A stretch of 64,000 bases of DNA from an uncultured Chromatiales bacterium (GCA_964581365.1 CAZOOF010000005.1:12872-76871); one strand, 5' to 3'; positions 15,544 through 56,748 are shown, numbered from the stretch's first letter. Numbers and translations: made by a program. The notes: generated by a model from the letters alone, not told the origin.

Positions 15544-15617
15544 GCGTCCTGCGCCTTTGTTGGTTGGGTTCGGAAGGTATCCATTGCCAGCGGAATGGTA
15601 TTGCGTCGAATGGAAAG

Positions 15618-15642
15618 CGCAATGATAATAATTACCATTCGA
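15618..15642. promoter_or_regulatory. Candidate Fur box in the divergent promoter region
   Basis: AATGATAATAATTACCATTC: GATAATAATTACCATTCGA matches 13/19 of GATAATGATAATCATTATC and contains a perfect GATAAT hexamer. It sits in an AT-rich island about 80 nt from the TonB receptor start and about 60 nt from the piuC-like start. Confidence 0.45.
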
Positions 15643-15697
15643 CGTATCAATAGGGCATGAAAAAAACGGGCACGCGCAGCGCCCGGAGGACAGCGAG

Positions 15698-16378
15698 ATG
15701 ATGCAACGAATTCCCCGGGTGCTGAGTCCGGAGCAGGTGCAGGAGTGCCGCGCGGCGCTGGAGGCCGCTGAGTGGACCGATGGCCGGCTAACCGCCGGAC
15801 ATGCCGCGGTGCGGGTGAAGAGCAATCTGCAGCTCGCCCAGGACGATCCGGTGGGAGTCCGCCTGGGCAATCTGATCCTGGACGCCCTCGCAAGGAATCC
15901 CCTCTTCATGTCGGCCGCGCTGCCGCTGCGGGTCCTGCCGCCGCGATTCAATCGCTACGAGGGCGGAGGCGCTTACGGCAACCACATCGACAACGCGGTT
16001 TTCGCGGTGCCGGGAACGCCGCATCGGGTGCGCTCCGATGTGTCGGCGACGCTGTTTTTCAGCGAGCCGGAAGAGTACGAGGGCGGGGAGCTGGTGATCG
16101 AGGACACCTATGGCGCGCATGCGGTCAAGCTGCCGGCTGGCGATATGGTGATCTATCCCGGGCACAGCCTGCATCGCGTGACACCGGTTACGCGCGGAGC
16201 GCGTTTCGCAGCGTTCTTCTGGATCCAGAGTCTGGTTCGGGACGACGGGGAACGGGCGCTGCTGTTCAGCCTGGACAATGCTATCCAGGATGTGGCGAAG
16301 GCGCTCCCCGATCATGCTGTGTCCGGTCAGCTGCTCGGCGTCTATCACAACTTGCTTCGCCGCTGGACGGAGACCTGA
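15698..16378 (+). CDS. piuC: PKHD-type Fe(II)/2-oxoglutarate-dependent hydroxylase (YbiX/PiuC family)
   Basis: Full-length match to the PiuC/YbiX layout, including HIDN...D and H..RV Fe-binding residues and FFWIQS. Divergent from the TonB receptor, as in fiu-ybiX or piuA-piuC loci. Confidence 0.85.
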
Positions 16379-40814: not shown

Positions 40815-40899
40815 GCGCAGGTGGCGGAATCGGTAGACGCGCTGGTTTTAGGTGCCAGTGGGGCAACCTGTGAGAGTTCGAGTCTCTCCCTGCGCACCA
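40815..40899 (+). tRNA. tRNA-Leu (anticodon UAG) with a long variable arm, including encoded CCA
   Basis: Acceptor GCGCAGG/CCTGCGC, anticodon stem CTGGT/GCCAG with loop TTTAGGT (anticodon TAG), T-arm GAGAG-TTCGAGT-CTCTC, discriminator A and CCA. Confidence 0.85.
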
Positions 40900-40915
40900 G
40901 CGGGCCTGGTGCGAG

Positions 40916-43318
40916 TCAGTCCGTCAGGTCGAGCGCCGCATTGATGGCGTCGTCCACATTCTCCAGCCAGACGAAATTGAGCCGTTTGCGGGCTGACTCC
41001 GGCACGTCCTCGAGATCGATGCGGTTGCGGGCGGGCAGAAGCACTGTGGTGATGCCCGCGCGCGCGGCGGCCAGCGCCTTCTCCTTGATGCCGCCGACCG
41101 GCAGCACCAGCCCCCGCAGGCTTATCTCTCCGGTCATCGCCGTATCCTGCCGTACCGTGCGTCCGGTGAGCAAAGATACCAGCGCTGTGTACATCGCGAC
41201 GCCTGCGCTCGGTCCGTCCTTGGGAATGGCTCCCGCCGGCACATGGATGTGCAGGTCCGATTCGGCGAATACCGACTGGTCGATGCCGAGCGATTCCCAG
41301 CGGTTCTTGGCCAGGCTCAGCGCCGCCTGCGCGCTCTCCTTCATCACCTCGCCAAGTTGTCCGGTAAGGATCAGCTTGCCGTTACCGGGGCTGCGGGCAG
41401 CCTCGATGAACAGGATGTCGCCGCCGACGGGTGTCCACGCCAGTCCGGTCGCGACGCCGGGCACGCTGACTCGCATCGCCACCTCGCTTTCGAACTTGCG
41501 CGGACCGAGGATGGCGGGCAGGTCCGCAGAGTCGATGGTGGCGGGAGTGGTGTCACCTTCGGCCACACGCATGGCGATGTGGCGGAAGACATTGCCGATC
41601 TCGCGCTCCAGATTGCGCACCCCGGCTTCACGCGTGTATTCGCTGATGATGGTCTGCAGCGCCGCTTCGGTCAGCGTGCACTGATCGGCGGTGAGGCCGG
41701 TGGCCTCGAGTTGCCGGCCGACGAGGTAGCGCTTCGCGATCTCCATCTTCTCTTCATCGGTGTAGCCGGGCAGCGTGATGATTTCCATGCGATCGAGCAG
41801 AGGGCGCGGGATCGTGTCGGCCATGTTCGCCGTGGCCAGGAACACCACTCGCGACAGATCGAACGGCACGGCGATATAGTTGTCGCGAAAGGCGGAATTC
41901 TGCTCCGGGTCGAGTACCTCGAGGAGGGCCGCGCTCGGGTCGCCATGGAATCCGGTGCCCAGCTTGTCCACTTCGTCGAGCATGAACACCGGATTGCGGG
42001 TGCCCGCCTTGCGCAGCCCCTGGATGATGTTGCCGGGGAGGGCGCCCACATAGGTCCGGCGATGCCCGCGGATCTCCGATTCGTCGTGAACCCCGCCGAG
42101 CGCGACGCGCACGAAGGCGCGGCCCGTGGCGCGCGCAATGCTCTGCCCGAGCGAGGTTTTACCGACTCCGGGCGGTCCGACCAGGCACAGAATCGGGCTG
42201 CGTCCCTGGGGATTGAGTTTCAGCACCGCCAGATACTCCAGGATACGGCGCTTCACTTTTTCCAGGCCGTAGTGATCCTCGTCGAGGATGGTCCGCGCGC
42301 GGGCGATGTCGATTTCGGCTTCGCTGAGCTTGTTCCAGGGCAGGGCGACCATCCAGTCCAGATAGGTGCGCAGCATCGAATACTCCGAAGCTCCCTCCGG
42401 CATGCGCTCCAGCCGGGAGAGTTCCCGCAGCGCCTGCTCCCTGGCTTCTTCGGGCATGTCGGCTTCATCGATGGCGCGGCTGAGTTCATCGTGCTCGGCT
42501 GCCTGCGGCTGATCCTCGCCCAGTTCGCGCTGAATGGTCTTCAGCTGTTCGCGCAGCAGAAACTCCCGCTGGCGACGGTCCACGGTCTCGCGCGTCTGGC
42601 GTTCGATTTCATGCGACAGACGCAGCACGGCGAGACGCTGGGCGAGCAGTTCGGCCACCCGGTTGACCCGCGCTTCGACGTCGATGATCTCGAGGATTTC
42701 CTGCTTCTCCGCCGCTTTCAGATCCATGAAGCTGGCCACGAGATCGCACAGCGAGCCGGGCGAAGTCACCGCCTGCACCGTTTCTGCCAGCTCGGCGGGG
42801 GCCTGCGGCACGAGCTCGATGGCCTCCAGGGCCTGGCGGCGCATGTGATCGGTGCGCGCCTCGAGCTCCGGCGTGAGGTGCTCCTCGACCTCGATGTTTT
42901 CCACCCGGGCTGCATAGAAAGGATATCCCGGCACGAATTCACGGATCCGGAACCGCCGCAGGCCCTGGCAGATGATGTGATGAGTGCCGTCGGGAGAGGT
43001 GACGTAGCGCAGCACGTTGGCGACCGTGCCCACCGCGTGCAGATCCTCCGGCCCGGGTAGATCCTGTTGCGGATCGCGCTGCTGAATGACACCGAGCGGA
43101 CTGTTCGACTTGACCGCTTCCTGAGCCGCGAGAATCGAACGCCGGCGGCCGATCGTGAGCGGCAGCACGACATCCGGAAACAGCACCACCCCGCGCACCG
43201 GCAGGATGATGATGACATCCTCCGGAAGATCGTAGGCAGGGGCTTCGGAACTGGTTGGCTGTTCGGACTCCGCGGTTGCGGGAGTAACCTGCTCCGGTTT
43301 CTGGACGATTTCGTTCAT
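40916..43318 (-). CDS. lon: ATP-dependent Lon protease (LonA)
   Basis: N-terminal LON domain, AAA+ ([17 protein letters not shown], Walker [10 protein letters not shown]) and a proteolytic domain with [15 protein letters not shown] and the Lys of the Ser-Lys dyad. Confidence 0.95.
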
Positions 43319-43355
43319 GTTCAGGCTCCTGGATCAGGGGTGGCGCGGACGGTAC

Positions 43356-43763
43356 TCAGAACAGCTTCTTGAGCTGCATCATCAGGCAGCCGTGCATGGC
43401 CTCGTGGGCGGCGAGCTCCAGCTCGCTGCCTGGCAGCTCAAATACCCGTACGAAGCGACCGTAAGGAATCTCCAGCCTCTGCACTATGCCGGCCCGGCGC
43501 AGGCTTTCTGGCAAGGGGCGCTCCGCGCGAACCTGGACGACGTTGCCGGAGACGCTGATTTCCATGGCGGCCGGGGGAACCCCCGGCAGGGCGACGAGAA
43601 TCCAGAACTCGTTCTCTGTCTCGAAGATATCCGCCGGCGGCTCCCAGACCGGCTGCCCGGATTCGGCGGATAGCTGGAAGAACTGACGATGCAGACGTTC
43701 GGCGCGTTGAAGAAGCCCGCAAGCTTCTGCCCACATCCAGATCTTGGGATCCTGGGATGACAT
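43356..43763 (-). CDS. Hsp20-family small heat-shock protein immediately upstream of lon
   Basis: ACD-like PADIFETENEFWILVALPGV...GNVVQVRAER...LEIPYGRFVRVFELP. Confidence 0.7.
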   Translation of the reverse strand: MSSQDPKIWMWAEACGLLQRAERLHRQFFQLSAESGQPVWEPPADIFETENEFWILVALPGVPPAAMEISVSGNVVQVRAERPLPESLRRAGIVQRLEIPYGRFVRVFELPGSELELAAHEAMHGCLMMQLKKLF

Positions 43764-43882
43764 CGCTCTGCCTCTTCCTAATCCGACCGGTATTCATGTT
43801 AGTCCATAATGAGGGCAGTGCGAATAAAATCCACCGGGCTCTGCTAGAATGGATCCATGCTTTCGCGGAGGTATTTGCAGAC

Positions 43883-44194
43883 GTGACTGAAGACGAAAAG
43901 GAAGCTGAAGCGGTGTTCGACGAAGCGGCGTGGCGGACGGTCGAGCTGGGCAACAGCATGGCACAGGCCGACGAAGACGCCGACGTCTGGGATATCGCCG
44001 ATGGCTTGCTCGCGGGCGCAGTGCAGTACTGGCTGTACTCGCGTGAACCCTGTGACAATCCGCGTTGTGAGGACTGCGCGCCGCTCAGCACCGCCGAGAA
44101 GCGGGTTGCTGAAATGGCACGCCTGCTTCGGCAGTACGCTGAAGAAAGCGAGTACTATCACTCGCAGAACGATTCCAACGTGGGCAGGGCTTAG
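43883..44194 (+). CDS. Hypothetical acidic protein (about 103 aa)
   Basis: GTG start 11 nt after GGAGG, with a CxxxxC...C..C pattern (CDNPRCEDC). Low confidence. Confidence 0.35.
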   Translation: MTEDEKEAEAVFDEAAWRTVELGNSMAQADEDADVWDIADGLLAGAVQYWLYSREPCDNPRCEDCAPLSTAEKRVAEMARLLRQYAEESEYYHSQNDSNVGRA

Positions 44195-44269
44195 GGCGGC
44201 GGAGTCGGGCGGCTCCGGCCTGCCGGGGAAGCGGAAGCGCGTCGCAAGCGGCTGCCGCGCCCTGTGCCG

Positions 44270-44304
44270 GAAAAACAAAAGGGATCCTCACGGATCCCTT
44301 TTCA
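44270..44304. terminator. Bidirectional rho-independent terminator
   Basis: AAAACAAAA-GGGATCC-tcac-GGATCCC-TTTT: a perfect stem flanked by A and T runs, between two convergent genes. Confidence 0.65.
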
Positions 44305-44339
44305 CATCTGACCCCGGCACTTCTCCGGCCTTCACTCGT

Positions 44340-44741
44340 TCACTCGTCGTCGACCGCATCCCAGTCGTCGTCCATCACCGATTCGAATTCAGGCTCGTTC
44401 GTGGCAAGCGCGTCGAGATCGTCGGTCAGCCTGTCATCCTGAACCGGACGGGTCGGTCGCGACGTCGTTGGCAGCGGTCGCTCGGTGCGCACCTTGAACT
44501 GCTTGCGCGCGCGCAGGTATGCCGCTCTCAGCTCGGCGCCGATTTCCTCTCCTTCCGCAGCGGTGAGTTCCCGCAGCTTGGGTTCGACGATGGCGCGGTT
44601 GTACGGAATGATCTCGTTACGCGCCATGTTGAAGAGATAAATGGTATCGGGATTGCCGGTGTCGAGTTGATCGTCTCGCACCACGGCACTGCTTTTCTGT
44701 CCCGCCTCAAGGTAACCGCACCAGATGGAATGCTTGGCCAT
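44340..44741 (-). CDS. Hypothetical protein with an acidic C-terminal tail
   Basis: 133 aa with coding-like composition. It ends immediately before the terminator hairpin. Confidence 0.5.
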   Translation of the reverse strand: MAKHSIWCGYLEAGQKSSAVVRDDQLDTGNPDTIYLFNMARNEIIPYNRAIVEPKLRELTAAEGEEIGAELRAAYLRARKQFKVRTERPLPTTSRPTRPVQDDRLTDDLDALATNEPEFESVMDDDWDAVDDE

Positions 44742-44814
44742 GGCTCGTCAAATATGATATCGATCAGGTGGCAAAATATAGGGCGGCTGTCTCCGTAAAA
44801 GCAAGAGGTCTGAG

Positions 44815-45309
44815 ATGCCATCTGGCACGGTCGAGAAAGGGAGGGGCGGCCCCCCGAAAACCCCGGCGCTGGCGGCCGATATGATCATCGAGATCGGGGG
44901 CGGAATCGTGCTCATCGAGCGGCGGAATCCACCCCATGGCTGGGCCATTCCCGGCGGTTTCGTCGACCCCGGCGAAACGGTCGAAAGCGCCGCCGTTCGC
45001 GAGGCGGCAGAGGAGACCGGTCTGGAGGTGACATTGCGCTGCCTGCTCGGCTGTTATTCAGATCCCCGCCGTGATCCCCGTGGCCACACGGTGAGTCTGG
45101 TCTATGTCGGCTCTGCCGCCGGAACACCGGAGGCACGTGACGATGCCGCGGCAGTCCGGCTGGTGGACCCGGCGGACATAGCTCTTCCCCTGGCTTTCGA
45201 TCATGCGCGCATCATCGCCGACTATCTGGTATGGCGGGATTCCGGATGGTCGCCGGGGTGGCGGCCAGCGCCGCCGATACCCGTCCGCGGGCGAGGCGAG
45301 CAGGCGTGA
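44815..45309 (+). CDS. NUDIX hydrolase
   Basis: Nudix box GGFVDPGETVESAAVREAAEETGLEV. Confidence 0.85.
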   Translation: MPSGTVEKGRGGPPKTPALAADMIIEIGGGIVLIERRNPPHGWAIPGGFVDPGETVESAAVREAAEETGLEVTLRCLLGCYSDPRRDPRGHTVSLVYVGSAAGTPEARDDAAAVRLVDPADIALPLAFDHARIIADYLVWRDSGWSPGWRPAPPIPVRGRGEQA

Positions 45310-45863
45310 TGCGCCGGCGCGGGCGGGCTTTCGTTCTCCTGGTGCTGCTCGCCGGGTTCTGCGCCGTCGCGGCGGCCGAGCCGCGCATCTGGCTGTTCGT
45401 CGACAGCAGCCAGCGAACCTTATCAGTGATGAAGGGAGACCAGCGCGTAGAGCTGTTCCGGGGCGTCGCATTCGGGCGCGGCGGCGTAGCGCCCTTCCGT
45501 CGCGAGGGTGACGGCAGGACGCCGATGGGGGTGTTTTACATCTCCTGGATCAATACCGACAGTCCGTATCACCGCTTCTTCGGACTCGATTATCCCGCCG
45601 CCAGTCACGCCGAAGAGGCATTGCGCGGGCGGGCGATCGACGAGCGAACCTATCACGCCATCCTCGATGCCAGACGGCGTGGCCAGGTGCCGCCGCAGGA
45701 CACCGCGCTCGGCGGTCACATAGGCATACATGGGGTGGGGAGATACGACCCCGAAGACCATCGCCTGTTCGATTGGACACTGGGTTGCGTCGCCCTTACC
45801 GACGAACAGATCGATGAACTCACTCGCTGGGTCACGCTCGGCACCATGGTCGTCATTCAGTAA
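45309..45863 (+). CDS. L,D-transpeptidase (YkuD/ErfK family), secreted
   Basis: ATG overlaps the NUDIX stop (TGATG). Signal peptide MRRRGRAFVLLVLLAGFCAVAAA and catalytic H..G....S.GC.R region IGIHGVGRYDPEDHRLFDWTLGCVAL. Confidence 0.8.
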   Translation: MRRRGRAFVLLVLLAGFCAVAAAEPRIWLFVDSSQRTLSVMKGDQRVELFRGVAFGRGGVAPFRREGDGRTPMGVFYISWINTDSPYHRFFGLDYPAASHAEEALRGRAIDERTYHAILDARRRGQVPPQDTALGGHIGIHGVGRYDPEDHRLFDWTLGCVALTDEQIDELTRWVTLGTMVVIQ

Positions 45864-46046
45864 AGGCGCATGAGGGCAACCCCCTATCGTTGAAAGGACC
45901 ATCCGGCTCTTATACGATTGATCGGGAAAGAGGACGCAGACCAGACTACGGGGTACGCGCGCATGGATGACCATGAGCAGAGTGTCGCCGGGCTGAGATC
46001 TATCCCGGGGCCGGCATCATCGGTGCGGAATGCACCGGGCAGACAG

Positions 46047-47312
46047 ATGGAGCACCGCGGGTTCACGCATCGCGTGCTCATGCATTTGCTGGCGGGTATC
46101 GGCGATCCGCCGGTGCAGGTGACGCTGTGGAACGGCGAACGCCACTCTCCGCCTTCCGGTGTCGTGCCCGTGGCGCGGGTGCATATCCGTGACCCTCGGT
46201 CCCTGTGGACTCTGCTACTCGATCCCTGGCTCTACTTCGGAGATCTCTATGCCTGTGGGGATGTGGAGGTCGACGGCGATCTGGTCGCGTTCCTGAGCTG
46301 TGTGTATCGTGCCTCGGCGGCTGCGCGGCAGCGTCGCGGCAGAGGGGGAGTCCTCGGCTGGTGGCTGCATCGGCCACGTTCTACCAGCCTGGGTCGCGCC
46401 CGCGACAACATCCACGCCCACTACGATCTCGGCAACGACTTCTATCGTCTGTGGCTGGATCGCGAGATGGTCTACACCTGTGCCTACTTTCCCCGGCCTG
46501 ATGCCGGACTGGAAGAGGCGCAGATCGCCAAGATGCATCATGTCTGCCGCAAGCTGCGTCTTCGCCCCGGTGATTCGGTGGTCGAGGCTGGCTGTGGCTG
46601 GGGATCGCTCGCGCTCTTCATGGCCCGCCACTACGGCGTACGGGTGCGCGCCTACAATATATCCCGCGAACAGATCGCCTGGGCCCGCGCACGGGCAAAG
46701 GACGAGGGCCTGGCCGACCGGGTCGAGTTCGTGGAGGATGACTATCGCAACATCAGCGGAAGCTACGACGCGTTCGTCTCTGTCGGCATGCTCGAGCATG
46801 TCGGCATCCGCTACTATCCGGAACTCGGGGGTGTGATCGATCGGGTGTTGCGCGAGCACGGTCGTGGCTTCATTCACACCATTGGGAGGGCCAGACCGGG
46901 GCAGATGAACGCCTGGATCGAACGCCGGATATTCCCGGGCGCGTGCCCGCCCAGTCTCGACCAGATGATGGACATCCTCGAACCGTACCGCTTCGCGGTG
47001 CTCGATGTGGAGAATCTCCGTCTGCATTACGCCCGCACTCTCGGGCACTGGCTGGCGCGCTTCGACGGCGCCACCGACGAGGTCCGGCACATGTTCGATG
47101 AAACCTTCGTACGCTCTTGGCGGCTCTATCTGTGCGGCTCCATCGCCGCTTTCCTGACTGGCGAACTGCAACTCTTCCAGGTCGCATTCAATCGGGCCAG
47201 CAACAATGAGGTACCCTGGACCCGGGAGCATCTGTACGCCAGGTTTGTTCCCGGCGAGACGACGGTGTCCGGGCAGCAGATCGCGCGCCCGGCGGCAAAC
47301 AGTGGTGACTGA
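46047..47312 (+). CDS. cfa: Cyclopropane-fatty-acyl-phospholipid synthase family SAM methyltransferase
   Basis: DNIHAHYDLGNDFYRLWLD..MVYTCAYF, VVEAGCGWGSLALFMARHYG, GMLEHVG and the C-terminal CFAS-family region. The start could be further upstream (45918 or 45963). Confidence 0.85.
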   Translation: MEHRGFTHRVLMHLLAGIGDPPVQVTLWNGERHSPPSGVVPVARVHIRDPRSLWTLLLDPWLYFGDLYACGDVEVDGDLVAFLSCVYRASAAARQRRGRGGVLGWWLHRPRSTSLGRARDNIHAHYDLGNDFYRLWLDREMVYTCAYFPRPDAGLEEAQIAKMHHVCRKLRLRPGDSVVEAGCGWGSLALFMARHYGVRVRAYNISREQIAWARARAKDEGLADRVEFVEDDYRNISGSYDAFVSVGMLEHVGIRYYPELGGVIDRVLREHGRGFIHTIGRARPGQMNAWIERRIFPGACPPSLDQMMDILEPYRFAVLDVENLRLHYARTLGHWLARFDGATDEVRHMFDETFVRSWRLYLCGSIAAFLTGELQLFQVAFNRASNNEVPWTREHLYARFVPGETTVSGQQIARPAANSGD

Positions 47313-47313
47313 A

Positions 47314-48456
47314 ATGGCGTCCAGCGCCTGCGATGTGCTGATCATTGGCGGTGGTCCGGCCGGCTCGAGTTGCGCCGCCAGGCTGCGCGCCGGTGGACTC
47401 GACGTGGTCGTCATGGACCGCCAGACCTTTCCCAGGGACAAGGTGTGCGCCGGCTGGATCACCCCAGCCGTGGTCGAGACCGTGGGTCTCGATATCGATG
47501 ACTACCGGCGCGAGCGCGTCTTTCAGCCGATTACCGGCTTCGTTACCGGCATGGAAGGGAAGAAGTCCCGGGTCATCGATTATGGCAGGGAGGTGAGCTA
47601 CGGCATCCGCCGTTGCGAGTTCGATCACTACCTGCTGACGCACTCCGGCGCGCGTCTGCTGCTCGGTCATTCGCTGGACTCCCTGGAGCGCCGCGCGGAT
47701 CGCTGGATCGTTAATGGCGCGCTGGAAGCAAAGCTGCTGATCGGCGCAGGCGGACACTTCTGCCCGGTCGCGCGACACCTGGGCGCCCGCCCGGGGCGCA
47801 GCGAGCTCGCGGTGACTGCTCAGGAAATCGAGGTCCGTCTGAATGCGGACGAGCAGCGCGCGTGTCGTGTCCGCCCCGAGTTTCCCGAAATCCATTTCTG
47901 CGCCGACTTGAAGGGTTACGGCTGGTGCTTCCGCAAGGGGGATTGGCTGAACATTGGACTCGGCCGCGAGGGCGGGGACCGGCTGTCCAGTCATGTGGCG
48001 GCCTTCCGCGCCCGCCTGATCGCTGAAGGACGCATTCCGCACAGCGTGCCGGAGCAGTTTAACGGCCACGCCTATCTGCTCTATTCGAGCGCCCGGCGGC
48101 GCGTCGTGGACGATGGCGTCATGCTGATCGGGGACGCTGCCGGACTGGCCTATCCGCAGAGCGGCGAGGGGATCAGGCCGGCGATCGAATCGGGAATATT
48201 GGCCGCCGAAACTGTGCTTGGCAGCAGAACCGGACGCTACGGACTGCGGGATCTGGAACCCTATGCCGCCGCCCTGGAGCGGCGCTTCGGCGCCCGCGCG
48301 GCGCAGCGTCGTTTGTCTCTTCCCCCCGCGCTCATGCACAGGCTGGGTGGGTGGCTCCTCGGCAATCAGTGGTTCTCGCGCCGGATCGTCCTCGATCGCT
48401 GGTTCCTGCACGCGCACGAGAAGGCCCTGGCCGGGATGCCCGCAGCGGAACGATGA
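47314..48456 (+). CDS. FAD-dependent oxidoreductase of the geranylgeranyl-reductase family
   Basis: ATG 1 nt after the cfa stop. FAD fingerprint CDVLIIGGGPAGSSCAARLRAGGLDVVVMDR, GD motif VMLIGDAAGL and the overall GGR-family layout. Confidence 0.8.
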   Translation: MASSACDVLIIGGGPAGSSCAARLRAGGLDVVVMDRQTFPRDKVCAGWITPAVVETVGLDIDDYRRERVFQPITGFVTGMEGKKSRVIDYGREVSYGIRRCEFDHYLLTHSGARLLLGHSLDSLERRADRWIVNGALEAKLLIGAGGHFCPVARHLGARPGRSELAVTAQEIEVRLNADEQRACRVRPEFPEIHFCADLKGYGWCFRKGDWLNIGLGREGGDRLSSHVAAFRARLIAEGRIPHSVPEQFNGHAYLLYSSARRRVVDDGVMLIGDAAGLAYPQSGEGIRPAIESGILAAETVLGSRTGRYGLRDLEPYAAALERRFGARAAQRRLSLPPALMHRLGGWLLGNQWFSRRIVLDRWFLHAHEKALAGMPAAER

Positions 48457-48531
48457 AGGCTGTGGCGATCGCGCCATCAGCCTGCTCGTGAATAAGTGAG
48501 TCGCGGACGGGGTGCCCGGTCCGCGCTTTCT

Positions 48532-49341
48532 TCAGCCTGCCGAACGGCGCTGTTCGAAGAGTTCGATACGCTCGGCCGCCGGCCGGGCGATCTCCGCTAC
48601 CGTGATCCCGACCACCGCCGCCTTCCCCGGCGTGGCCGGATCACGTTTCGCGGCGGCTGTGGCATGGGCCTGACGATGCCTGAGGAGAATCTTTTCACGG
48701 GCCCGATCGTAGGAGTCGCGATCGATCTGTCCTGCTTCGAACAGCCGTCGATGCTCGACCAGCTCGGCGCCGAGGCGGCGATGGGCATGATCGCGATGCG
48801 CGGTCTGGATGCGATGCAGCAGGGCACGCATGAAATCGCGGAACTCTGCGCGTGAGGGTGAATTGTTGGCGAGTTCGAGCAGCATGGCGTCGCCATGGCG
48901 GCTGTGAAAGCGAACCAGGTTCTGATAGCGCTGGAAGAATACGAACAGCGACAGGAGTGCGCCATTCAGCAGCAGAATCGTTCCGGGCATCCATGCCTGC
49001 TGATGCCACGGTGTCGGCGACCAGAAGCTGGCGGCGAGCAGCATGGCGGTGGCCCCGGCCAGCCCGATAGCCAGGTACAGCCAGCGCCGATCGGCAATCG
49101 TCACCAGATGCGGCGTGGGGTCCAGATAGGCGAGGTTCAGCCAGTAGCGCTGCGAGCGGCGGAAGGGGCGTTTGCGGTGCACCGAAATGAACTGGCCGTT
49201 GAACAGCGTGTAGTGTGCGGACTGCAGGCGTGCATGGCTGATCTGAAACAGTTCGACGAGTTCTTCCGGCTCGGCGCCGCGCGCGGCCGTTTCACTCGCT
49301 GAGTCCTTGCTCCTGGCTGGCGTGATGCTGGGCTGCGACAT
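48532..49341 (-). CDS. Hypothetical membrane protein (two TM helices), last gene of the ATP-grasp/GCS2 operon
   Basis: Trimmed to MSQPSITPARS with GGAGG upstream. Hydrophobic segments LYLAIGLAGATAMLLAASF and GTILLLNGALLSLFVFF, and a basic or His-rich C-terminal half. Confidence 0.5.
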   Translation of the reverse strand: MSQPSITPARSKDSASETAARGAEPEELVELFQISHARLQSAHYTLFNGQFISVHRKRPFRRSQRYWLNLAYLDPTPHLVTIADRRWLYLAIGLAGATAMLLAASFWSPTPWHQQAWMPGTILLLNGALLSLFVFFQRYQNLVRFHSRHGDAMLLELANNSPSRAEFRDFMRALLHRIQTAHRDHAHRRLGAELVEHRRLFEAGQIDRDSYDRAREKILLRHRQAHATAAAKRDPATPGKAAVVGITVAEIARPAAERIELFEQRRSAG

Positions 49342-49390
49342 CGGACCTCCTTGGTGTCTGCTACCGATGTTCCTATTATTGCCAGCGGCT

Positions 49391-50098
49391 TCAGAGCTTC
49401 TGTGATCGGGTCGCCAATTTGGTGACAGAGCGCAGTGCATCGGCGATGGTTTGCATGAATTGCCTGCGCGGCCGGGGCAAAAGCCCCTGATTGATTTCCA
49501 GTTCGATGCCGAGATAACTCCTGGCCGAAAAGCGGCGGCGCAGATGCGTGGTCAGCCCGTCGGCATCGCCGCGATATGGATAGTTGCGGCGTACTCGCAG
49601 CGAAGCGTCATGCGCGGCGAGCGCCGCCTGCCAGGCGCTGCACAGGCGGCGCTCGCCGGTTCTTGCCGGGTCGTAGAGCAGGCCAATGTCGGCATTGCGC
49701 TCTCTTCCATCGAGCACGGGGGTGAAGCTGTGTACCGCCACGTGCAATACCCTGCGGCCGCGGCGGGCATGCTGCGCGATCCAGGTTTCGACTTTTTCTC
49801 GGTGAGGGAGGTAGTGCCGCGAGAGGATGAGTTCGCGCTCCCCCGCCGCGAGCTCGCGGGTGAACCCGGAGAACAGCGCCGGGTGGTGCAGCGAACGGTT
49901 GAGGTCGACCAGAAGACGCGAGATGCGCGCATCGATCAGCGGTGCGCCGAGCAGATGCGAAAGCAGACGCGCCCATTCGAGCGCGCCGGGATCCCAGCCG
50001 CGATGGCTGGCGAGCAGCTCGTCATGGCCAGCGAACAAAGGGCGATAGCGCGCGGGAATCCGGTTGCCGCCATGCTCGCAGCTGAGCAGCAATTGCAT
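49391..50098 (-). CDS. N-formylglutamate-amidohydrolase (FGase, PF05013)-like hydrolase
   Basis: Start MQLLLSCEHGGNRIP..., with RISRLLVDLNRS and VAVHSF motifs. Confidence 0.7.
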   Translation of the reverse strand: MQLLLSCEHGGNRIPARYRPLFAGHDELLASHRGWDPGALEWARLLSHLLGAPLIDARISRLLVDLNRSLHHPALFSGFTRELAAGERELILSRHYLPHREKVETWIAQHARRGRRVLHVAVHSFTPVLDGRERNADIGLLYDPARTGERRLCSAWQAALAAHDASLRVRRNYPYRGDADGLTTHLRRRFSARSYLGIELEINQGLLPRPRRQFMQTIADALRSVTKLATRSQKL

Positions 50099-50112
50099 CG
50101 GGCTACGACGGC

Positions 50113-51387
50113 TCAGCCGGCGACGAACGACTCGCCGCGATCGAGGCAGTGGCACAGACGCTCATAGACCCGGTGAAGCGCCTCTTGGGGTGGGGATTCC
50201 GCCCCTGCGCCGGTCTCCTGCGCGAGGGCGCGGGTGATGCGCCGCGCCAGCGTGCCCTGATCGAGGTAGAGACGGTAGATTGCTGCGTCATCCGGCACCG
50301 GATTGGGCAGCAGCGTTTCCTGCAGGTGCTGCCACAGCTCGCGTGCCCGGCAGCGGCCGCGCTCGGGGAAACCGAAAACGCGCGGCAGCAGGCGGTCTGC
50401 GATCACCGCATCTTCGGCGTCGCGCACACAGAGCTCGAATGAGTGGAGCAGGGCGGCGGTATCGACTTCCCGCAGCCGGCGCATGCCATACCAGGCCTCC
50501 TCGGCCAGGGCCTGGACCACGGCGACGATCAGGCGGGCGAACGCAAGGTCCGCCGCCGGCATTTCCTGCGTGTCGAGCACGCGGATTTCGATTGTGTCCC
50601 GATCGAAGCGGGCGATCGCTCCGCGCGCGTTCACCCATTCGTGGCGCAGAATGGCGTCGGGATCATGCGGAGCCAGATCGTGGTAGATGCGGCCGAGCAG
50701 TTCCTTCTCGTAGTCCGCCCGCGTATATATCGGTTCCGGCACCACCATCCCGGTGACCGAGGGAATGCGGCGGGCGTTGTAGCGATAGACCTCCAGGCGG
50801 TTGTCGAGCGTCCCGGTGAGCCGGCCATCCATCAGGGGCGAGCTGGCGGCGAGCGCGGGAAGCAGCGGTAGAGTCGTCCTGATTGCTGCGTGAAGCCGGG
50901 AGAACTCTTCATCGCCGCGGAAAGGAAGGTTGATATGCAGGCTCTGCAGGTTGGACCAACCATGTCCGCGACAGTCGAAGATCCGGTTGAAGGCTTCGTA
51001 TACCGGGCTGTGCGCATGGGGCCACAGCCGGGTTTCGCGCGCCGGATCCATCCATGGGTGCATCGCTGTCGGCATCAGCCGGCCGCCGGCGTCGCGCAGC
51101 AGCGCATTGATACGGGCGACGTCGGTTTGAAAGGCGGTCTCCAGACCGCCGAGCTTGGCCGCCGGTCCGTTGGTCTTCAGCTCGATGACGTGCAATGCCA
51201 GTTCGTTCGACCAGCACAGCGCGCCCGCCTCAACCTCGTCGACATACTCGCCGGCCATGGCGTGCATAACCCGGTCGGTCACCGGCAGTACATCGAGGGT
51301 CTCCGCATCGACGATCATGTATTCGATCTCGATCCCGTATGCCTCGAACAGGCCGATGCCCGCCCGTTCAGCGTGGCCGTCTTTCAC
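50113..51387 (-). CDS. GCS2-family carboxylate-amine ligase (YbdK/glutamate-cysteine-ligase 2 type)
   Basis: IGLFEAYGIEIEYMIVDAETLDVLPV...HVIELKT...LHINLPF...DTIEIRVLD follows the GCS2 fold pattern. Its start overlaps the ATP-grasp stop by about 20 nt. Confidence 0.75.
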   Translation of the reverse strand: MKDGHAERAGIGLFEAYGIEIEYMIVDAETLDVLPVTDRVMHAMAGEYVDEVEAGALCWSNELALHVIELKTNGPAAKLGGLETAFQTDVARINALLRDAGGRLMPTAMHPWMDPARETRLWPHAHSPVYEAFNRIFDCRGHGWSNLQSLHINLPFRGDEEFSRLHAAIRTTLPLLPALAASSPLMDGRLTGTLDNRLEVYRYNARRIPSVTGMVVPEPIYTRADYEKELLGRIYHDLAPHDPDAILRHEWVNARGAIARFDRDTIEIRVLDTQEMPAADLAFARLIVAVVQALAEEAWYGMRRLREVDTAALLHSFELCVRDAEDAVIADRLLPRVFGFPERGRCRARELWQHLQETLLPNPVPDDAAIYRLYLDQGTLARRITRALAQETGAGAESPPQEALHRVYERLCHCLDRGESFVAG

Positions 51388-52837
51388 CCTTGCGCTCCTC
51401 GACGCGGGCCAGCATGCCGCGCATGATCGTCATGTAGAGTTCGTTGCCGATCGCGGCATCTTCGATGCCGTGATCGATATTGGGGTTGTCGTTGACCTCG
51501 ATCACGTAAACACGACCGCCGATCTCCTTGAGGTCGACGCCGTAAAGACCCTTGCCGATGAGATTGGCTGCCTTGAGCGCGGTCGATACGACATGAGCAG
51601 GAACCTGGGGCAGCGGGATGCTCTCGGTCCGGCCCTCGCGGGGGCGTCCCTCGGGACCATGCTGCATGATCTGCCAATGTCCTCCGACCATGTAATACTT
51701 GCAGGCAAAGATCGCCTGGCGATCGAAAACGCCGATGCGCCAGTCGAAGGCGGTGGGCATGAACTCCTGGGCGATGATCAGTTCCGACTTTTCCAGCAGC
51801 CGCGCGGCCTGGGCCAGAAACTCCGGCCGGGTTTCCACCTTGATCACGCCCTGTGAGAAGGCGCTGTCGGGCTGCTTGAGGATGCATGGCAGGGAGAAAC
51901 CGGCGGCCATCGCGCTCATGTTGCCGCGGTTGACGATGGTGGTACGCGGCGCCGGAATACGATGCCGCTGCATCAGCTCGGCGAGATACACCTTGTTGGT
52001 GCATTTCAGAATCGAGCCGGGATCATCGATCACCACCAGTCCCTCAGCCTTGGCGCGCCGCGCGAAGCGATAGGTGTGGTGGTTGACTCCAGTAGTTTCG
52101 CGAATGAACAGCGCGTCGAATTCCGCGATGCGGCCGTAATCGTTCCTGGTGATCAGCTCGACGGCGAAGCCGAGCTGACGCCCCGCCCGAACGAAGCGGC
52201 GCAGCGCGGCGCTGTCGGAAGGCGGCTGCGCCTCATCAGGATTATGGAGGATGGCGAGATCGTAGCGTTCGACCTGAGGTTCCCGGCGCCGCGAGCGCTT
52301 GCCGGAAAAGTACTCGCTCGCCGCTTCGATGACGAAGGACTGGTGATCGTCCGGAATGTCGCTGGCGGCGATCGGTCCGATGCTCTGCAACTGCCATGAG
52401 CGGTTGCGTATGAAGCGGGCGCGCAGCAGCGGCGCCGGAAACAGGTTGAACAGACTGAGCGCAAGCCGGTCATAGCGCCGCGCCAGGTTGCGTCCGAAGT
52501 AGATGCTGAGCACGAACTCCTCGGATTTGATCGGCGCCAGGTTCTTCTGTATCAGCTCGAACAGATCATCGGACACGAAGCGGGTGATGGTCTGGGATTT
52601 CATGTCCTGAATGGTGGCCACGCTCGGCAGAGGCTTGTGTCCGCGTGCCTCGGCGAGCAGGGATACGTAGTAACCCAGGCTCTGATACCGGTACGAGCGT
52701 GACAGATTGAAGACCTTCACTCCGCGCAGGTCCAGAAACCGGGGGTCGGAGAGATACGTCTTGGCGGCGACCACTTCGGCGCCGTGGATTTGCAGCGGCC
52801 AGTCTTCGGGGTTATTGACGACTATGAATATCGACAT
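51368..52837 (-). CDS. RimK-type ATP-grasp amide ligase with a ~250-aa N-terminal extension (RLAN-like domain)
   Basis: Trimmed to MSIFIVVNNPEDW. The C-terminal 300 aa form a RimK/glutathione-synthetase-like ATP-grasp (CILKQPDSAFSQGV..., ELIIAQEFMP..., VYVIEVNDNPN). The N-terminal domain matches the RimK-like ATP-grasp N-terminal layout. Confidence 0.8.
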   Translation of the reverse strand: MSIFIVVNNPEDWPLQIHGAEVVAAKTYLSDPRFLDLRGVKVFNLSRSYRYQSLGYYVSLLAEARGHKPLPSVATIQDMKSQTITRFVSDDLFELIQKNLAPIKSEEFVLSIYFGRNLARRYDRLALSLFNLFPAPLLRARFIRNRSWQLQSIGPIAASDIPDDHQSFVIEAASEYFSGKRSRRREPQVERYDLAILHNPDEAQPPSDSAALRRFVRAGRQLGFAVELITRNDYGRIAEFDALFIRETTGVNHHTYRFARRAKAEGLVVIDDPGSILKCTNKVYLAELMQRHRIPAPRTTIVNRGNMSAMAAGFSLPCILKQPDSAFSQGVIKVETRPEFLAQAARLLEKSELIIAQEFMPTAFDWRIGVFDRQAIFACKYYMVGGHWQIMQHGPEGRPREGRTESIPLPQVPAHVVSTALKAANLIGKGLYGVDLKEIGGRVYVIEVNDNPNIDHGIEDAAIGNELYMTIMRGMLARVEERKGERRPR

Positions 52838-53567
52838 GGCTCTGCGCGTGGTGCCTGGTATGCGCCGGTTCGATGACCAGTAGATTGGCGTCGTGGGTGA
52901 GGACGCCCAGGAGAATCGCGCCGATGACGCGGTCGATGCTGATTTCGTAGCGGTGCCCGGGAGCCATCGGATTGGAGTGCAGCGGATCGATGACCAGGAC
53001 CGAGCGGGTTTCGGCTTCGTAGCCGGCGAGCAGGACGAAGTGGCCGCTCGGATAGCCGCGGATGTCGTCGTAATCGCAGCGCGGTCCATATTCACGCGCG
53101 CAGCGGTAGAGGTAAGTGGCGCTCAGTCCGGTGAGCAGGGGAATCCCGCGCTTCAGGTAGCGGCGGATGAGTCCGGTGGTGAGGTCCTCGAAGCGCAGGC
53201 GCCCGCCAGCGGCGAGAAAGCGGTCATAGCCTTCAGTGGCGATGGCGAACTCCGGGCTGTTCTTCGCTTCCACCTGTCGCTGCATCCGCTGTGCGATGTC
53301 CGCTACGCTGCCGCTCTCGTCGAACCAGGTCGGGTCGAACATCTCCAGGTTATAGGTGTAAATCGTCGCCCGATAACCTCGCTCCAGCGCATGCGTGGCG
53401 AGAAACACCGCCAGGGTCCCGCCATGATCGAGGCGCTGGATGCCGTTGATCACCTGGTCGAGCGGCATTTCGTCCTGATAATACCGGTAAACAGCGTGCA
53501 GGCAGGTGGGGCCGCAGGTGGTTTCGTCGGGCTGGGGAAGAATGTCTATCGCCAGGGGGCTTGCCAT
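52812..53567 (-). CDS. Papain-fold cysteine peptidase, C39-like, first gene of the operon
   Basis: ILPQPDETTCGPTCLHAVYRYY resembles the Q...CG(P/A)xxL active-site stretch of C39/C39-like peptidases. A downstream His (GHFVLLAGY) fits the catalytic dyad. Its stop overlaps the ATP-grasp start. Confidence 0.55.
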   Translation of the reverse strand: MASPLAIDILPQPDETTCGPTCLHAVYRYYQDEMPLDQVINGIQRLDHGGTLAVFLATHALERGYRATIYTYNLEMFDPTWFDESGSVADIAQRMQRQVEAKNSPEFAIATEGYDRFLAAGGRLRFEDLTTGLIRRYLKRGIPLLTGLSATYLYRCAREYGPRCDYDDIRGYPSGHFVLLAGYEAETRSVLVIDPLHSNPMAPGHRYEISIDRVIGAILLGVLTHDANLLVIEPAHTRHHAQSHVDIHSRQ

Positions 53568-53831
53568 GGCGCGAATGATACAGATCGTTTGTTCACGCGA
53601 ACAGGGGCGGCAAGGGGGCTGGCCGGGGCTGCGTCGGCGCGGAACTGTCCCGCGAACGGTGGCCGGGTGGGGGCGGTACGGAGCGTGTGATGAACATGTT
53701 GGCGGCTCCTCCGGACGCTGCTAGACTGAACGCGGCGTTGACTGTTTGCGCCATCTGGAATATGGACGCCACTGGGATGTGGAAGACGGTACCGGCATTG
53801 CTCGTACGTTTTTCAAGTGAGGGGTGGTTCT

Positions 53832-54038
53832 ATGTCGACAGGCAAGGTGAAGTGGTTCAACCAATCGAAGGGTTACGGCTTCATTACCCCGGATGACGGG
53901 GGTAAGGACGTATTCGTTCATTATTCGGCCATCAGACTCGATGGCTTCAAGACGCTCATGGAAGGTCAGAGCGTGACCTTCGACACGGAAGATACGGCGA
54001 AGGGGATTCAGGCCACCAACGTCATTCCCGCACAATAG
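53832..54038 (+). CDS. Cold-shock protein (CspA family), second copy
   Basis: [34 protein letters not shown] with GAGGGGTGG upstream. Confidence 0.9.
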
Positions 54039-54069
54039 CGGCAAGGAGCCTGCGCGGGAGTGTGACCGT

Positions 54070-54110: not shown

Positions 54111-55274
54111 TCAGGACGAGAGCAGCTTCCTCGATCTGACCAGGTTCCTGCGCAGCCTGGCACGTTGCATGGCCCAGGGTTCGGACCAGTTCGACCCCGG
54201 GCGCGCCAGCGCTGCGCACAGTTTTACCAGCGCCTCCGCATCATGACGACTGACGAACTCCGGGGCCGGTCCGCCGGGCGCCTTGACGTCGTCGCCGCCA
54301 TCCAGACCTTGGTTATGATAGTTGCCCAGCGGCACCGATATCCCCGCTGCTGGTACACCCCAGGCCGTCATTGCCGTTGCCTCGCAGGATCCGCCATCCA
54401 TCACTCTTCGTTGATGCTGCGCCAGGCTGCGCCTGGCGATCTGGCTTAGCGTCTCCAGGATGGTGGGGTCGAACACCGTGCGGCGGTCGCCGAGCCGTAC
54501 CACGGGTCCCTTGCCGATCTCGGCTCCGGGCAGGGTGCGGGATGCTTCGAGGCTGATCGCCAGCACCGGCCGACGGCGCTCCTGCAGCCAGCCCAGCTCC
54601 AGATGCGCGACAGCGCCGACGAAGCCGACCTCTTCAGCGCGGGTGAGCAGGCCGATGAACGGCGCGCCCGAGTCGCGTCCGCCGCGCCACACAGTGAGCG
54701 CGGTCTCGACAATGGCATGGACGCCGACCAGGTCATCCGCTGCCGGGCAGTAGATGCGCTCGCCCGATTCCCACACCGGAGCGCGAAACCCGAAACCGCC
54801 GTAGACGGCCTGTGCCTTTGGTTGCGGATTGAGCGGCCCGTCCAGTCGGATCTCGGCGGTATCCATCGCCCAGCCGCCCTCCCGGATGGTGGGCCGTTGC
54901 AGTCTGCCGCTCGCGATCACGCCTTCATCGGTCACCAGCCGCGTGCGCGCGCCCGTGAGATGGCGCACCGGTGAACCGCCGTGCCAGCGCACGGCCAGGC
55001 GATCGGGGCCGAGCCAGCGGACGCCGTGGAATCCAGGATGATCCATGTGCGCGATGAACAATCGCAGCGGCTCATCATCTTTCCTGCGCAGCAGGCGCCG
55101 GTAGGCGGCGGCTGAAGCCGCGCCGACCACCAGATTGCCGGCGGGGTCCTCGAAGTGCGGTACCCCGCGCCGCTCCAGGATGGCAGCGACATGCGCCGCG
55201 ACATGCGTTTCGCGAAATGGCGCGGTCGGCTGCGACAGCAGCTGCAGCAGACGTTTGTGTCGTACCTTGCTCAT
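54111..55274 (-). CDS. M42-family (FrvX/glutamyl-aminopeptidase-like) metallopeptidase homolog
   Basis: [10 protein letters not shown] (compare AHMDEIG) and [13 protein letters not shown] (compare EEVGLRGA). The start is ambiguous (55274 or 55313), and the 5' end of the track ORF is non-coding. Confidence 0.55.
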
Positions 55275-55383
55275 TGCGCCCACTTTACCAGAACGGGCGC
55301 GCACCGCGCTCATCGGACCGGTCTTTCGCAATCTGCTCTCGGCCGCGTCTTTGCGGACACGATGTGCCGCGCTAGGATTGGGC

Positions 55384-56748
55384 ATGCCCGAGAGATACGA
55401 AGTCATCGTGATCGGCAGCGGACCGGGGGGCGAGGGGGCGGCGATGAAGGCCGCCAAGGGAGGCCGGCGGGTCGCCGTGATCGAGGAGAAGCCGCAGGTC
55501 GGCGGCAACTGCACTCACACCTCCACCATTCCGAGCAAGGCGCTGCGACAGGCAGTGCAGCAGCTGGTGCAGACCGGACGTCAGGATCTGGCCCGCTTCG
55601 AGGAGCTGCTGCAGACCGCGCGCGGAGTGATCGACCGGCAGGTCAGCATGCGCACCGGTTTCTATCACCGTAACCGTGTGGACATCATCACCGGTCGCGC
55701 CCGCTTCATCGACACGCATACGGTCGAAGTAAGCGGCAGCGGCCCGCCGCGACCTTATCGGGCCGACACATTTGTGATCGCGACGGGGTCGCGACCATTC
55801 CATCCTCCCAACATCGACTTTTCGCATCCGCGCATCCTCGACAGCGACACCGTGCTCAGGCTTGCCGACAGCCCGCGCTCCATCACCATCTACGGCGCCG
55901 GGGTGGTCGGCTGCGAATATGCGTCGATTTTTCGCCATCTCGGCGTCAAGGTGAATCTGATCAATACGCGCCCGCAACTCCTCTCATTCCTCGACGATGA
56001 AATCGTGGATGCGCTTTCCTATCATTTTCGCGCCCAGGGCATCCTGATCCGGCACGGCGAGGTGTATGACCGGGTGGAGGCCAACGGGCAGTGCGTGACG
56101 CTGCATCTGAAGTCGCAGAAGCAGATCCGCTCCGATTACCTGCTGTGGACGCAGGGGCGGGCGGGCAATTCGGACGATCTCGGGTTGACGGAAATCGGGG
56201 TGCTGACCGACGCGCGCGGCTGCATCAGTGTGGATGAGCACTATCGCTCCTCGGTGCCGCACATTTACGCCGTCGGCGACGTCACCGGTCCTCCCAGTCT
56301 CGCCAGCGCTGCCTACGACCAGGGGCGCTACGCCGCCACCCATCTGCTGCGGGGCGACGGGGCAGTGGGGCTGCTGAAGAGCGTTCCGACGGGGATCTAT
56401 ACGCTGCCCGAAATCAGTTCGATCGGCGGCACCGAGCGCGAACTGACCGCCGAACGTGTTCCGTATGAGGTCGGACATTCACTGTTCCGTCATCTGGCGC
56501 GGGCGCAGATCTCGGGACACACGACCGGGATGCTGAAGATCCTTTTTCACCGCGAGACTCTCGAGATCCTGGGGATTCACTGTTTCGGCGATCAGGCGGC
56601 CGAGATCATCCATATCGGGCAGGCGGTGATGTCTCAGCCGGGCGCGGGCAATACCCTCAGGTATTTCGTGGATACCACCTTCAACTATCCGACCATGGCC
56701 GAGGCTTACCGGGTGGCTGCCCTGAACGGCCTCAACCGGATTTCCTGA
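55384..56748 (+). CDS. sthA: Soluble pyridine nucleotide transhydrogenase
   Basis: Colinear with E. coli SthA from [21 protein letters not shown] through GGNCTH..TIPSKAL to ...[27 protein letters not shown]. Confidence 0.95.

Follow-up and report, generated by a model that had tools for sequence, protein, structure and literature searches.

Ligases of the RimK clade of ATP-grasp enzymes (RimK, MptN, CofF and RIMKLA/B) attach L-glutamate to a carboxylate. The gamma-carboxyl group of glutamate is activated by GCS2 and YbdK, and FGase hydrolyses N-formyl-L-glutamate, enzymes of its family cleaving N-acyl-glutamates. N-acyl dipeptides are made by a GNAT acting with a RimK-like ligase, in mammals by NAT8L with RIMKLA/B, which yield N-acetylaspartylglutamate (NAAG) and beta-citrylglutamate, and in bacteria by Ngg/AsnO, which yield N-acetylglutaminylglutamine amide (NAGGN). 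Closest to the subject of this work, Iyer, Abhiman, Burroughs and Aravind, in Mol Biosyst in 2009, are said to have described an association of RLAN-RimK proteins with a COOH-NH2 (GCS2) ligase, a papain-like peptidase and amidohydrolases, and reportedly predicted from it, on purely computational grounds, a peptide synthesis or modification system that underlies the Pfam annotation of RLAN. Later papers cite Iyer et al. (2009) for related GNAT-papain fusions. Here, we analyzed a stretch of 64,000 nucleotides (nt) from an uncultured Chromatiales bacterium (GCA_964581365.1 CAZOOF010000005.1:12872-76871; hereafter, the window), which contains an operon encoding a C39-like papain-fold peptidase, an RLAN-RimK ATP-grasp ligase, a GCS2-family ligase, an FGase-family amidohydrolase and a membrane protein. 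The first three genes, usually with the fourth, belong to a cassette conserved among distant bacteria, which we tentatively propose makes and turns over a small cytoplasmic, N-capped and glutamate-terminated peptide or amide.

The initial annotation had placed five genes on one strand at positions 48,532 to 53,567, and both this layout and the junctions (overlaps of 26 and 20 nt, followed by gaps of 14 and 49 nt) proved exact (Table 1), with start positions equivalent to those in the gene calls of a syntenic relative (L084). It had also treated the five genes as one operon, a candidate peptide or amide-forming system. One genome per species was scanned (about 185,000 species-representative genomes), at least 599 loci with a homologue of the ATP-grasp protein were found, and the window proteins were run by tblastn against the 83 best-scoring of these to score the gene content and order of the cassette; the counts given below refer to these 83 loci unless another number is stated. 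Peptidase, ATP-grasp and GCS2 genes occur in that order on one strand in about 70 loci, the GCS2 gene lying downstream of the ATP-grasp gene in about 72. In a Gallionella locus, the open reading frame (ORF) upstream of the RLAN-RimK gene is not a peptidase homologue. An FGase gene follows GCS2 in about 44 of the 66 loci with enough downstream sequence to be informative, one copy being divergent and seen with Pfam only, and the membrane protein was found in none of the 83. Thus, co-conservation extends to the first three or four genes and leaves out the fifth: the conserved cassette is the peptidase, RLAN-RimK and GCS2, usually with the FGase, and is smaller than five genes. This arrangement is far beyond chance; the same order recurs in dozens of phylogenetically distant genomes.

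The loci span more than ten phyla, and the 80 best of the at least 599 include Planctomycetota, Bacteroidota, Beta-, Gamma- and Deltaproteobacteria, Myxococcota, Nitrospirota, Nitrospinota, Acidobacteriota, Verrucomicrobiota, Gemmatimonadota, Spirochaetota, Fibrobacterota, Omnitrophota and Sumerlaeota; Alphaproteobacteria are also among the groups with the cassette order. Cultured hosts listed are Blastopirellula marina, Thiobacillus thioparus, Pontibacter spp., Desulfosediminicola and Lentisalinibacter. ATP-grasp homologues of the same length and architecture are 60-92% identical, and at least 8000 candidate clusters were obtained, all significant. Across 68 loci, the median pairwise identities of the three core proteins are 53%, 54% and 49% (54% for the ATP-grasp protein), and these identities correlate with one another (Spearman 0.40-0.51). 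Gammaproteobacterial copies are 56-63% identical to each other and 58-65% identical to planctomycete and deltaproteobacterial copies, and they stand no nearer to the window copy than the latter do. The flanking genes change from locus to locus. This pattern indicates that the cassette has spread laterally as a strongly constrained unit.

Profile searches judged against Pfam gathering cut-offs uphold all four domain assignments made at the outset (C39_2, RLAN/RimK, GCS2 and FGase). In the ATP-grasp protein, RLAN (PF14401) scores 159.8 bits (cut-off 25) and the RimK domain 26.7 bits (cut-off 21), and homologues of about 490 residues are built alike, with RLAN at the N-terminus followed by the RimK-type ATP-grasp module. 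The latter presents the fold of the RimK/LysX clade, the Mg/ATP motifs and the arginines for an acidic substrate, and its nearest structural neighbors are the glutamate-ligating RimK, LysX and ArgX. In NCBIfam, where matches were judged against equivalog or subfamily cut-offs, the protein stays below those for RimK (TIGR00768, 52.5 bits against 143.4; PRK10446, 15.3 against 331). Residues R64, R189 and N262 of RimK-PA, which touch bound poly-Glu (PMC10092738), align with the invariant R246, R367 and N449 of the cassette ligase; the RLAN domain holds a nearly invariant motif of its own, NL.RSYRYQS.GYYVSLLAEARGH.P.P. The peptidase matches Peptidase_C39_2 with 42.5 bits (cut-off 24) and combines a papain fold with the Gln/Cys/His/Asp catalytic set of Peptidase C39; besides its top structural matches, it resembles the pseudomurein endoisopeptidase PeiR (15.6), a C39-like protein of B. 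anthracis (15.4) and the phytochelatin-synthase-like Alr0975 (14.8). All catalytic motifs checked are invariant, and those of the peptidase, the ATP-grasp protein and GCS2 are intact.

The structural kinship with RimK, LysX and ArgX on one side, and with C39 domains on the other, is part of what speaks for the main rival explanation, a reversible glutamylation that tags proteins or peptides, analogous to the action of RimK/RimB on ribosomal protein S6, to LysX/LysW, to pupylation or to the tubulin enzymes TTLL/CCP. Here, RLAN would recruit a cellular protein, RimK-type ligation would add one or more Glu to its C-terminus, GCS2 would activate a gamma-carboxyl in the manner of PafA and thereby start a branch or link Glu to an amine, and the C39-like peptidase and FGase would serve as erasers or processing enzymes. 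The extreme cross-phylum conservation (the 54% median of the ATP-grasp protein) would be in keeping with a substrate protein that is itself universally conserved and encoded in another part of the genome, and the GNATs of the variant systems described below are RimI-like, one being fused to a C39-like domain. Furthermore, the partner protease RimB modulates RimK activity (PMC10092738). Nevertheless, no conserved small or carrier protein lies near the cassette in the loci compared, the GCS2 protein matches small-molecule GCS2, YbdK and plant GCL with no Pup-ligase-type family among its matches, and the accessory neighbors are enzymes of amino acids and small molecules (class-II amidotransferase, KamA, Ddl-like ligases, decarboxylase, ggt). 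In addition, FGase family members are known only from reactions on small N-acyl-glutamates. On balance, we regard tagging as rather unlikely. Less likely still is a bolder form of it, in which the cassette would be a bacterial protein-glutamylation writer and eraser, the counterpart of tubulin polyglutamylation or pupylation: RLAN would recruit a universally conserved protein, GCS2 would start and RimK-type ligation extend a Glu tag, and the papain-fold peptidase and a carboxypeptidase-like FGase would remove it, in more than ten phyla that include Legionella, Thiobacillus and Planctomycetes.

The peptidase and ATP-grasp genes are tightly joined. Among the 73 loci in which this junction was measured, 42 show an overlap of 26, 23, 4 or 1 nt, and nearly all other gaps are shorter than 25 nt. 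In the window, the last residues of the peptidase, HVDIHSRQ followed by the stop codon, are the alternate-frame reading of the ATP-grasp N-terminus MSIFIVVN. More generally, a semi-conserved and disordered peptidase tail (H-V/A-D-x-H/D-R-x-Q) is the +1-frame reading of the ATP-grasp start M-x-x-L-I-V-V-N-N, the peptidase stop codon arises from the AAT AA of the Asn codons, and an overlap of 26 or 23 nt persists from phylum to phylum. What looks like conservation of the tail is the other frame of a conserved ATP-grasp N-terminus, and the 26-nt overlap suggests translational coupling of the two proteins. Fragments in which C39_2 and RLAN are fused also exist.

The GCS2 protein scores 93 bits with Pfam GCS2 (cut-off 21), and its metal-binding E20, E22, H66 and E69, as well as R255/R260/R269, are invariant in the 22 sequences on which this was scored. 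The family profile reaches YbdK (1r8g) with an E-value of only 6e-4 and plant GCL with about 3e-3; in NCBIfam, the protein is placed in none of YbdK, GshA and EgtA, the best match being TIGR02050 (66.8 bits, cut-off 176.4), and all GshA models give 48.7 bits or less against cut-offs of at least 249. The cassette GCS2 forms a divergent clade. The FGase protein scores 96.7 bits with Pfam FGase (cut-off 28.9), its nearest solved structure is the uncharacterised Atu2144 (2odf, E-value 7.5e-31), and H9, D36, R61, N67, R68 and H123 are invariant. It matches no NCBIfam family at an E-value of 0.01 or below, and hence is not a HutG equivalog; no hut genes were seen in the flanks examined.

Since GCS2 is a glutamate-cysteine ligase family, a glutathione or phytochelatin analogue has to be considered, in which GCS2 would make gamma-Glu-Cys and RLAN-RimK would extend it to gamma-Glu-Cys-Glu; the papain-fold enzyme, phytochelatin-synthase-like, would trim the end residue or oligomerise gamma-Glu-Cys, and FGase would recycle the terminal Glu. 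The stand-alone homologue of Pseudomonas aeruginosa described below adjoins ggt, which would suit such a pathway. However, the GshA, GshB and Phytochelatin models all remain under their cut-offs, C39 domains resemble the peptidase slightly more than Alr0975 does, the variants in which a GNAT stands in for GCS2 do not suit a thiol peptide, and there is no sign that the amine substrate is cysteine. Moreover, hosts such as Thiobacillus and Legionella are presumably equipped with ordinary glutathione genes. We therefore consider a thiol peptide improbable.

A C39 peptidase next to ligases could also belong to the maturation of a ribosomally synthesised and post-translationally modified peptide (RiPP) or bacteriocin, in which it would cut the double-glycine leader of a ribosomal precursor before the ligases modify it. 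Clustering of all ORFs of 20-110 amino acids within 1.2 kb of the cassette, on either side, yielded no groups apart from low-complexity artefacts, and hence no conserved candidate for a precursor. Likewise, all-against-all clustering of every ORF from the loci revealed no family beyond the four core ones in more than seven loci, and no recurrent ABC or PCAT transporter was found; MscS, CorA and MgtE neighbors occur in a few loci only, too few to interpret. The peptidase is a stand-alone cytoplasmic protein, and the 83 loci show neither a recurrent ABC exporter nor a conserved small ORF that could encode a double-glycine leader peptide, as would be expected of a bacteriocin-processing enzyme. 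A RiPP pathway thus seems very improbable.

The small-molecule reading draws on a wider family of RLAN systems. HMMER searches with RLAN alone returned 792 clusters at 50% identity, most of them with the 490-residue architecture. Others are GNAT-RLAN-ATP-grasp fusions, represented by P0387 (646 residues) and the fragments P0351, P0363, P0385 and P0417, and the GNAT of P0387-type fusions is RimI-like and does not match the NAGGN GNAT model; tblastn with such a fusion against a plasmid collection returned only RLAN-type genes. On replicon p1 of Azospirillum brasilense Sp7, a fusion of GNAT with DUF3335 (C39-like papain) abuts RLAN-RimK; no GCS2 or FGase lies nearby, a 914-residue ORF with no Pfam match stands directly upstream, and the DUF3335 motifs Q...TCGP and H.VV...D..R...DPL align with the cassette peptidase. 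In a member of Kiritimatiellales, a separate GNAT gene overlaps the start of RLAN-RimK and is followed by genes for an ornithine/diaminopimelate decarboxylase and a dihydrodipicolinate synthase. The GNAT-RLAN-ATP-grasp fusions and the Kiritimatiellales arrangement may represent a pathway of N-acetyl-dipeptide type distinct from NAGGN. In these systems, the recurring pair is a papain-fold enzyme and RLAN-RimK, the third enzyme being GCS2 or GNAT, both of which acylate an amino group.

Other contexts lie within amino acid metabolism. In P. aeruginosa (NZ_CP133752.1, labelled plasmid), a stand-alone RLAN-RimK homologue, 46% identical, neighbors ggt, a Glu/Asp ABC transporter, pagP and a class I/II aminotransferase, a gene content that looks like a chromosomal segment; we take the gene to be PA1345 and the segment the PA1338-PA1347 region. 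A putative CpxR site is listed ahead of PA1345 in one published study, and no characterisation of this gene appeared in the literature found. A similar observation concerns a 9-kb record of Legionella adelaidensis NCTC12735 ('plasmid 27', L093), in which the cassette is cut at the record start and accompanied by fur, bamE and dapF, and which resembles a piece of chromosome entered as a plasmid. In a Candidatus Tectimicrobiota locus (L001), a cassette with no FGase stands behind lysine 2,3-aminomutase (KamA), all in one orientation, with a CxxCxxCC protein, two Ddl-like ATP-grasp ligases, a GNAT and a CitMHS transporter before it and a large MscS channel after it; this may be a larger cluster for a beta-lysine-type peptide or osmolyte. 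In four distinct loci, a class-II glutamine amidotransferase-like (GATase_4/GATase_6) gene adjoins the cassette, in differing orientations. The family includes EgtC. Such a gene was considered as a substitute for FGase and rejected, since it also occurs in the FGase-bearing L020 and L028, and it is rather an occasional accessory.

In this context, four steps can be proposed for the small-molecule reading. GCS2 would form gamma-glutamyl phosphate and cap a substrate X at its amino group to yield gamma-Glu-X, the equivalent N-cap being supplied by GNAT in other RLAN systems. RLAN-RimK would next activate the free alpha-carboxylate and add L-Glu, giving an N-capped X-Glu (gamma-Glu-X-Glu, glutathione- or NAAG-like). 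The FGase-type amidohydrolase, sometimes with a class-II amidotransferase-type hydrolase as well, would take off glutamyl groups (C-terminal Glu). Finally, the papain-fold enzyme, which would be translationally coupled to the ATP-grasp protein and probably in complex with it, would hydrolyse or transfer the acyl moiety, like RimB on RimK products or phytochelatin synthase on glutathione. We infer substrate X, the step order and the physiological role, and offer all steps as proposals. The lack of a co-encoded carrier or precursor, the small-molecule type of the GCS2 protein and the amino-acid-metabolism contexts incline us, short of confidence, toward a small-molecule product.

Several points weigh against this reading. 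The three best structural matches of the ATP-grasp protein (RimK, ArgX and LysX) all have a small protein as substrate and modify its C-terminal Glu, and the structures that fit the peptidase best are C39 domains that genuinely process peptides. Fusion of a peptidase with a RimI-like GNAT is equally natural for the processing of a protein followed by its modification. About one-third of the informative loci lack FGase, so that this step is not obligatory, and the highly conserved RLAN domain is given no role. Indeed, the computed evidence fits a small-molecule acceptor and a protein or peptide C-terminus alike, no product, substrate or phenotype is on record for the cassette, and, because the 83 loci have the top scores among at least 599, cassette-type relatives are over-represented among them.

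The remaining genes of the neighborhood are of local character. The fifth protein has two hydrophobic or transmembrane segments and, at its C-terminus, a conserved helix motif (LGAEL.EHRRL.E.G.I....Y..A..KIL) resembling a SHOCT domain, and it matches no Pfam family above cut-off and no NCBIfam or PADLOC model. Its family comprises 39 homologous clusters, of which those with known context all fall in one gammaproteobacterial lineage, and it evolves faster than the enzymes, being 44% identical where the ATP-grasp protein is 76%. In distant homologues, at about 30-34% identity, the protein is shorter and the tail that follows the SHOCT-like motif is missing; the one in L087 starts 318 nt from the contig end. 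In relatives with ATP-grasp proteins 76-92% identical, the whole neighborhood is syntenic, in the order M42, csp or an unrelated small ORF, cassette, membrane protein, flavin adenine dinucleotide (FAD) oxidoreductase and cyclopropane-fatty-acid synthase. Among the distant loci, the membrane protein and the M42 peptidase occur in none of 83 and csp in one (L004). Because the synteny is confined to this lineage and the membrane family is small and fast-diverging, the membrane protein, cspA and M42 are vertically inherited neighbors in one Chromatiales-like gammaproteobacterial lineage and not components of the cassette, although the membrane protein is probably co-transcribed with it. The suggestion in the initial annotation that the membrane protein may carry a C-terminal Glu tag is accordingly poorly founded, since the family is lineage-confined and absent from all 83 distant loci; the same grounds, with its fast divergence, led us to reject it as a core part. 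A link to cold shock, also raised there, finds no comparative support, as cspA is limited to the closest relatives (ATP-grasp at least 92% identical), and relatives at about 77% identity carry at its position a predicted, unrelated ORF of 103-105 amino acids with no family match. The M42 peptidase was likewise rejected as an NAGGN-like component, being syntenic within the lineage only and matching no NAGGN model, nor any other NCBIfam model.

Table 1. Features of the window and of the related loci cited in the text (aa, amino acids).
Sequence	Feature	Coordinates	Strand	Remarks
Window	C39-like papain-fold cysteine peptidase, cytoplasmic, 251 aa	52812-53567	-	Core gene 1
Window	RLAN + RimK-type ATP-grasp amide ligase, 489 aa	51368-52837	-	Core gene 2; ATG at 52837 (MSIFIVV...)
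Window	RLAN domain	~52325-52765	-	Within core gene 2
Window	ATP-grasp module	~51470-51997	-	Within core gene 2
Window	Out-of-frame overlap, peptidase stop/ATP-grasp start, 26 nt	52812-52837	-	ORF listing and start inspection
Window	Divergent GCS2-family carboxylate-amine ligase, 424 aa	50113-51387	-	Core gene 3; GTG at 51387, GAGGAG before start
Window	Overlap, ATP-grasp stop/GCS2 start, 20 nt	51368-51387	-	
Window	FGase-family (N-acyl-glutamate-type) amidohydrolase, 235 aa	49391-50098	-	Frequent gene 4; ATG at 50098, 14-nt gap after GCS2
Window	Lineage-specific membrane protein, 269 aa	48532-49341	-	ATG at 49341, AAGGAGG before start, 49-nt gap after FGase
Window	Cold-shock-domain gene (cspA)	53817-54038	+	Divergent, upstream of operon
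Window	M42-like peptidase	54111 to ~55274	-	Beyond cspA
Window	tRNA	40815-40896		Rfam
L092, A. brasilense Sp7 replicon p1	GNAT-DUF3335 fusion and RLAN-RimK	5763-8470		
L076, Kiritimatiellales	GNAT and RLAN-RimK	7511-9452		
L091, P. aeruginosa	Stand-alone RLAN-RimK homologue	6905-8494		
L001, Candidatus Tectimicrobiota	Cassette with KamA and further genes	3689-16236		
L002/L003	Class-II GATase-like gene	13031-13849		
L018	Class-II GATase-like gene	1265-2119		
L020	Class-II GATase-like gene	11436-12491		
L028	Class-II GATase-like gene	6208-7095		
L086	Unrelated ORF at csp position	8877-9188		
L089	Unrelated ORF at csp position	3327-3644		

Stress and envelope functions are prominent in the local flanks (40815-48456 and 53817-54038), which hold Lon, HSP20, NUDIX, YkuD L,D-transpeptidase, cyclopropane-fatty-acid synthase, a flavoprotein of the geranylgeranyl-reductase family, a CspA-like protein and a tRNA; their synteny is lineage-specific. 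An Rfam scan found nothing but the tRNA, with no riboswitch or other RNA element. The longest M42-like ORF (54111-55514, minus strand) overlaps by about 380 nt a pyridine nucleotide-disulfide oxidoreductase ORF (55135-56748, plus strand); judged by homologues and by the placement of the domains, the former really starts near 55274 (M81) and the divergent oxidoreductase near 55390. Long antisense shadow ORFs at 47188-48477 and 53721-54044 (both minus strand), opposite the geranylgeranyl-reductase-like and csp genes, are typical of DNA with 64% guanine-plus-cytosine (GC). A foreign island was considered and dismissed, because the GC fraction over the cassette (0.61-0.67) resembles that of the flanks and composition carries no signal, as was a defence system, PADLOC matching none of the five proteins.

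In brief, the cassette is widespread and strongly conserved (median cross-phylum identity about 50-54%) and has no assigned product. If it is a small-molecule system, it would yield a new, broadly distributed Glu-containing peptide (thiol, anionic osmolyte, chelator or signal) and the first functions for RLAN (PF14401), the divergent GCS2 clade and Atu2144-type FGases; if proteins are tagged, it would be a new post-translational modification system. It makes a good experimental target, since its four enzymes are soluble, their catalytic residues are clear and several of its hosts can be cultured. The window itself holds an ordinary copy, with the membrane protein and cspA as local neighbors only, and does not represent a new kind of system.

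The operon lies outside the glutathione, cyanophycin, NAGGN and histidine-utilisation pathways, no NCBIfam equivalog reaching its cut-off in the profile searches, and full-text literature searches found no experimental work on it, in line with the initial annotation. Considering the 2009 prediction, as reported, together with the fact that no curated equivalog, close solved homologue or experimental paper was found, we class the cassette as an uncharacterised variant within the known amidoligase-plus-peptidase peptide systems. Compared with the RimK-RimB (RimA) polyglutamylation of S6 in Escherichia coli and Pseudomonas, its ligase is only about 19% identical, falls below both RimK models and carries an extra RLAN domain of 180 residues, the partner protease has a papain rather than a retropepsin-like fold, a second ligase (GCS2) and FGase are added, and there is no evidence for S6 as a substrate. 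Like glutathione synthesis (GshA/GshB; YbdK, EgtA), it pairs a GCS2-family gamma-glutamyl ligase with an ATP-grasp ligase that would extend the C-terminus, and genes for class-II amidotransferases, to which EgtC belongs, are occasional neighbors; unlike it, the ATP-grasp protein is of the RimK rather than the GshB clade, two hydrolases are co-encoded, and the GshA, GshB and YbdK models score far below their cut-offs. With NAAG and NAGGN it shares an N-capping enzyme and a RimK-clade ligase adding Glu or Gln, GNAT-type RLAN systems also exist, and in the window lineage an M42 peptidase lies upstream, as in NAGGN cassettes; nonetheless, the flanks examined showed no AsnO-type gene, the cassette and the M42 gene are not co-conserved, and the NAGGN trio models match neither the ATP-grasp protein nor the P0387 fusion. 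No CphA model of cyanophycin synthesis was among the ATP-grasp matches at an E-value of 0.01 or below, and, in comparison with phytochelatin synthase and Alr0975, the peptidase has no Pfam Phytochelatin match and fits C39 slightly better in structure. Beyond what Iyer and co-workers reportedly described, the present analysis adds structure models, overlap statistics and the alternation of GCS2 and GNAT, and it places the membrane protein, cspA and M42 outside the core.

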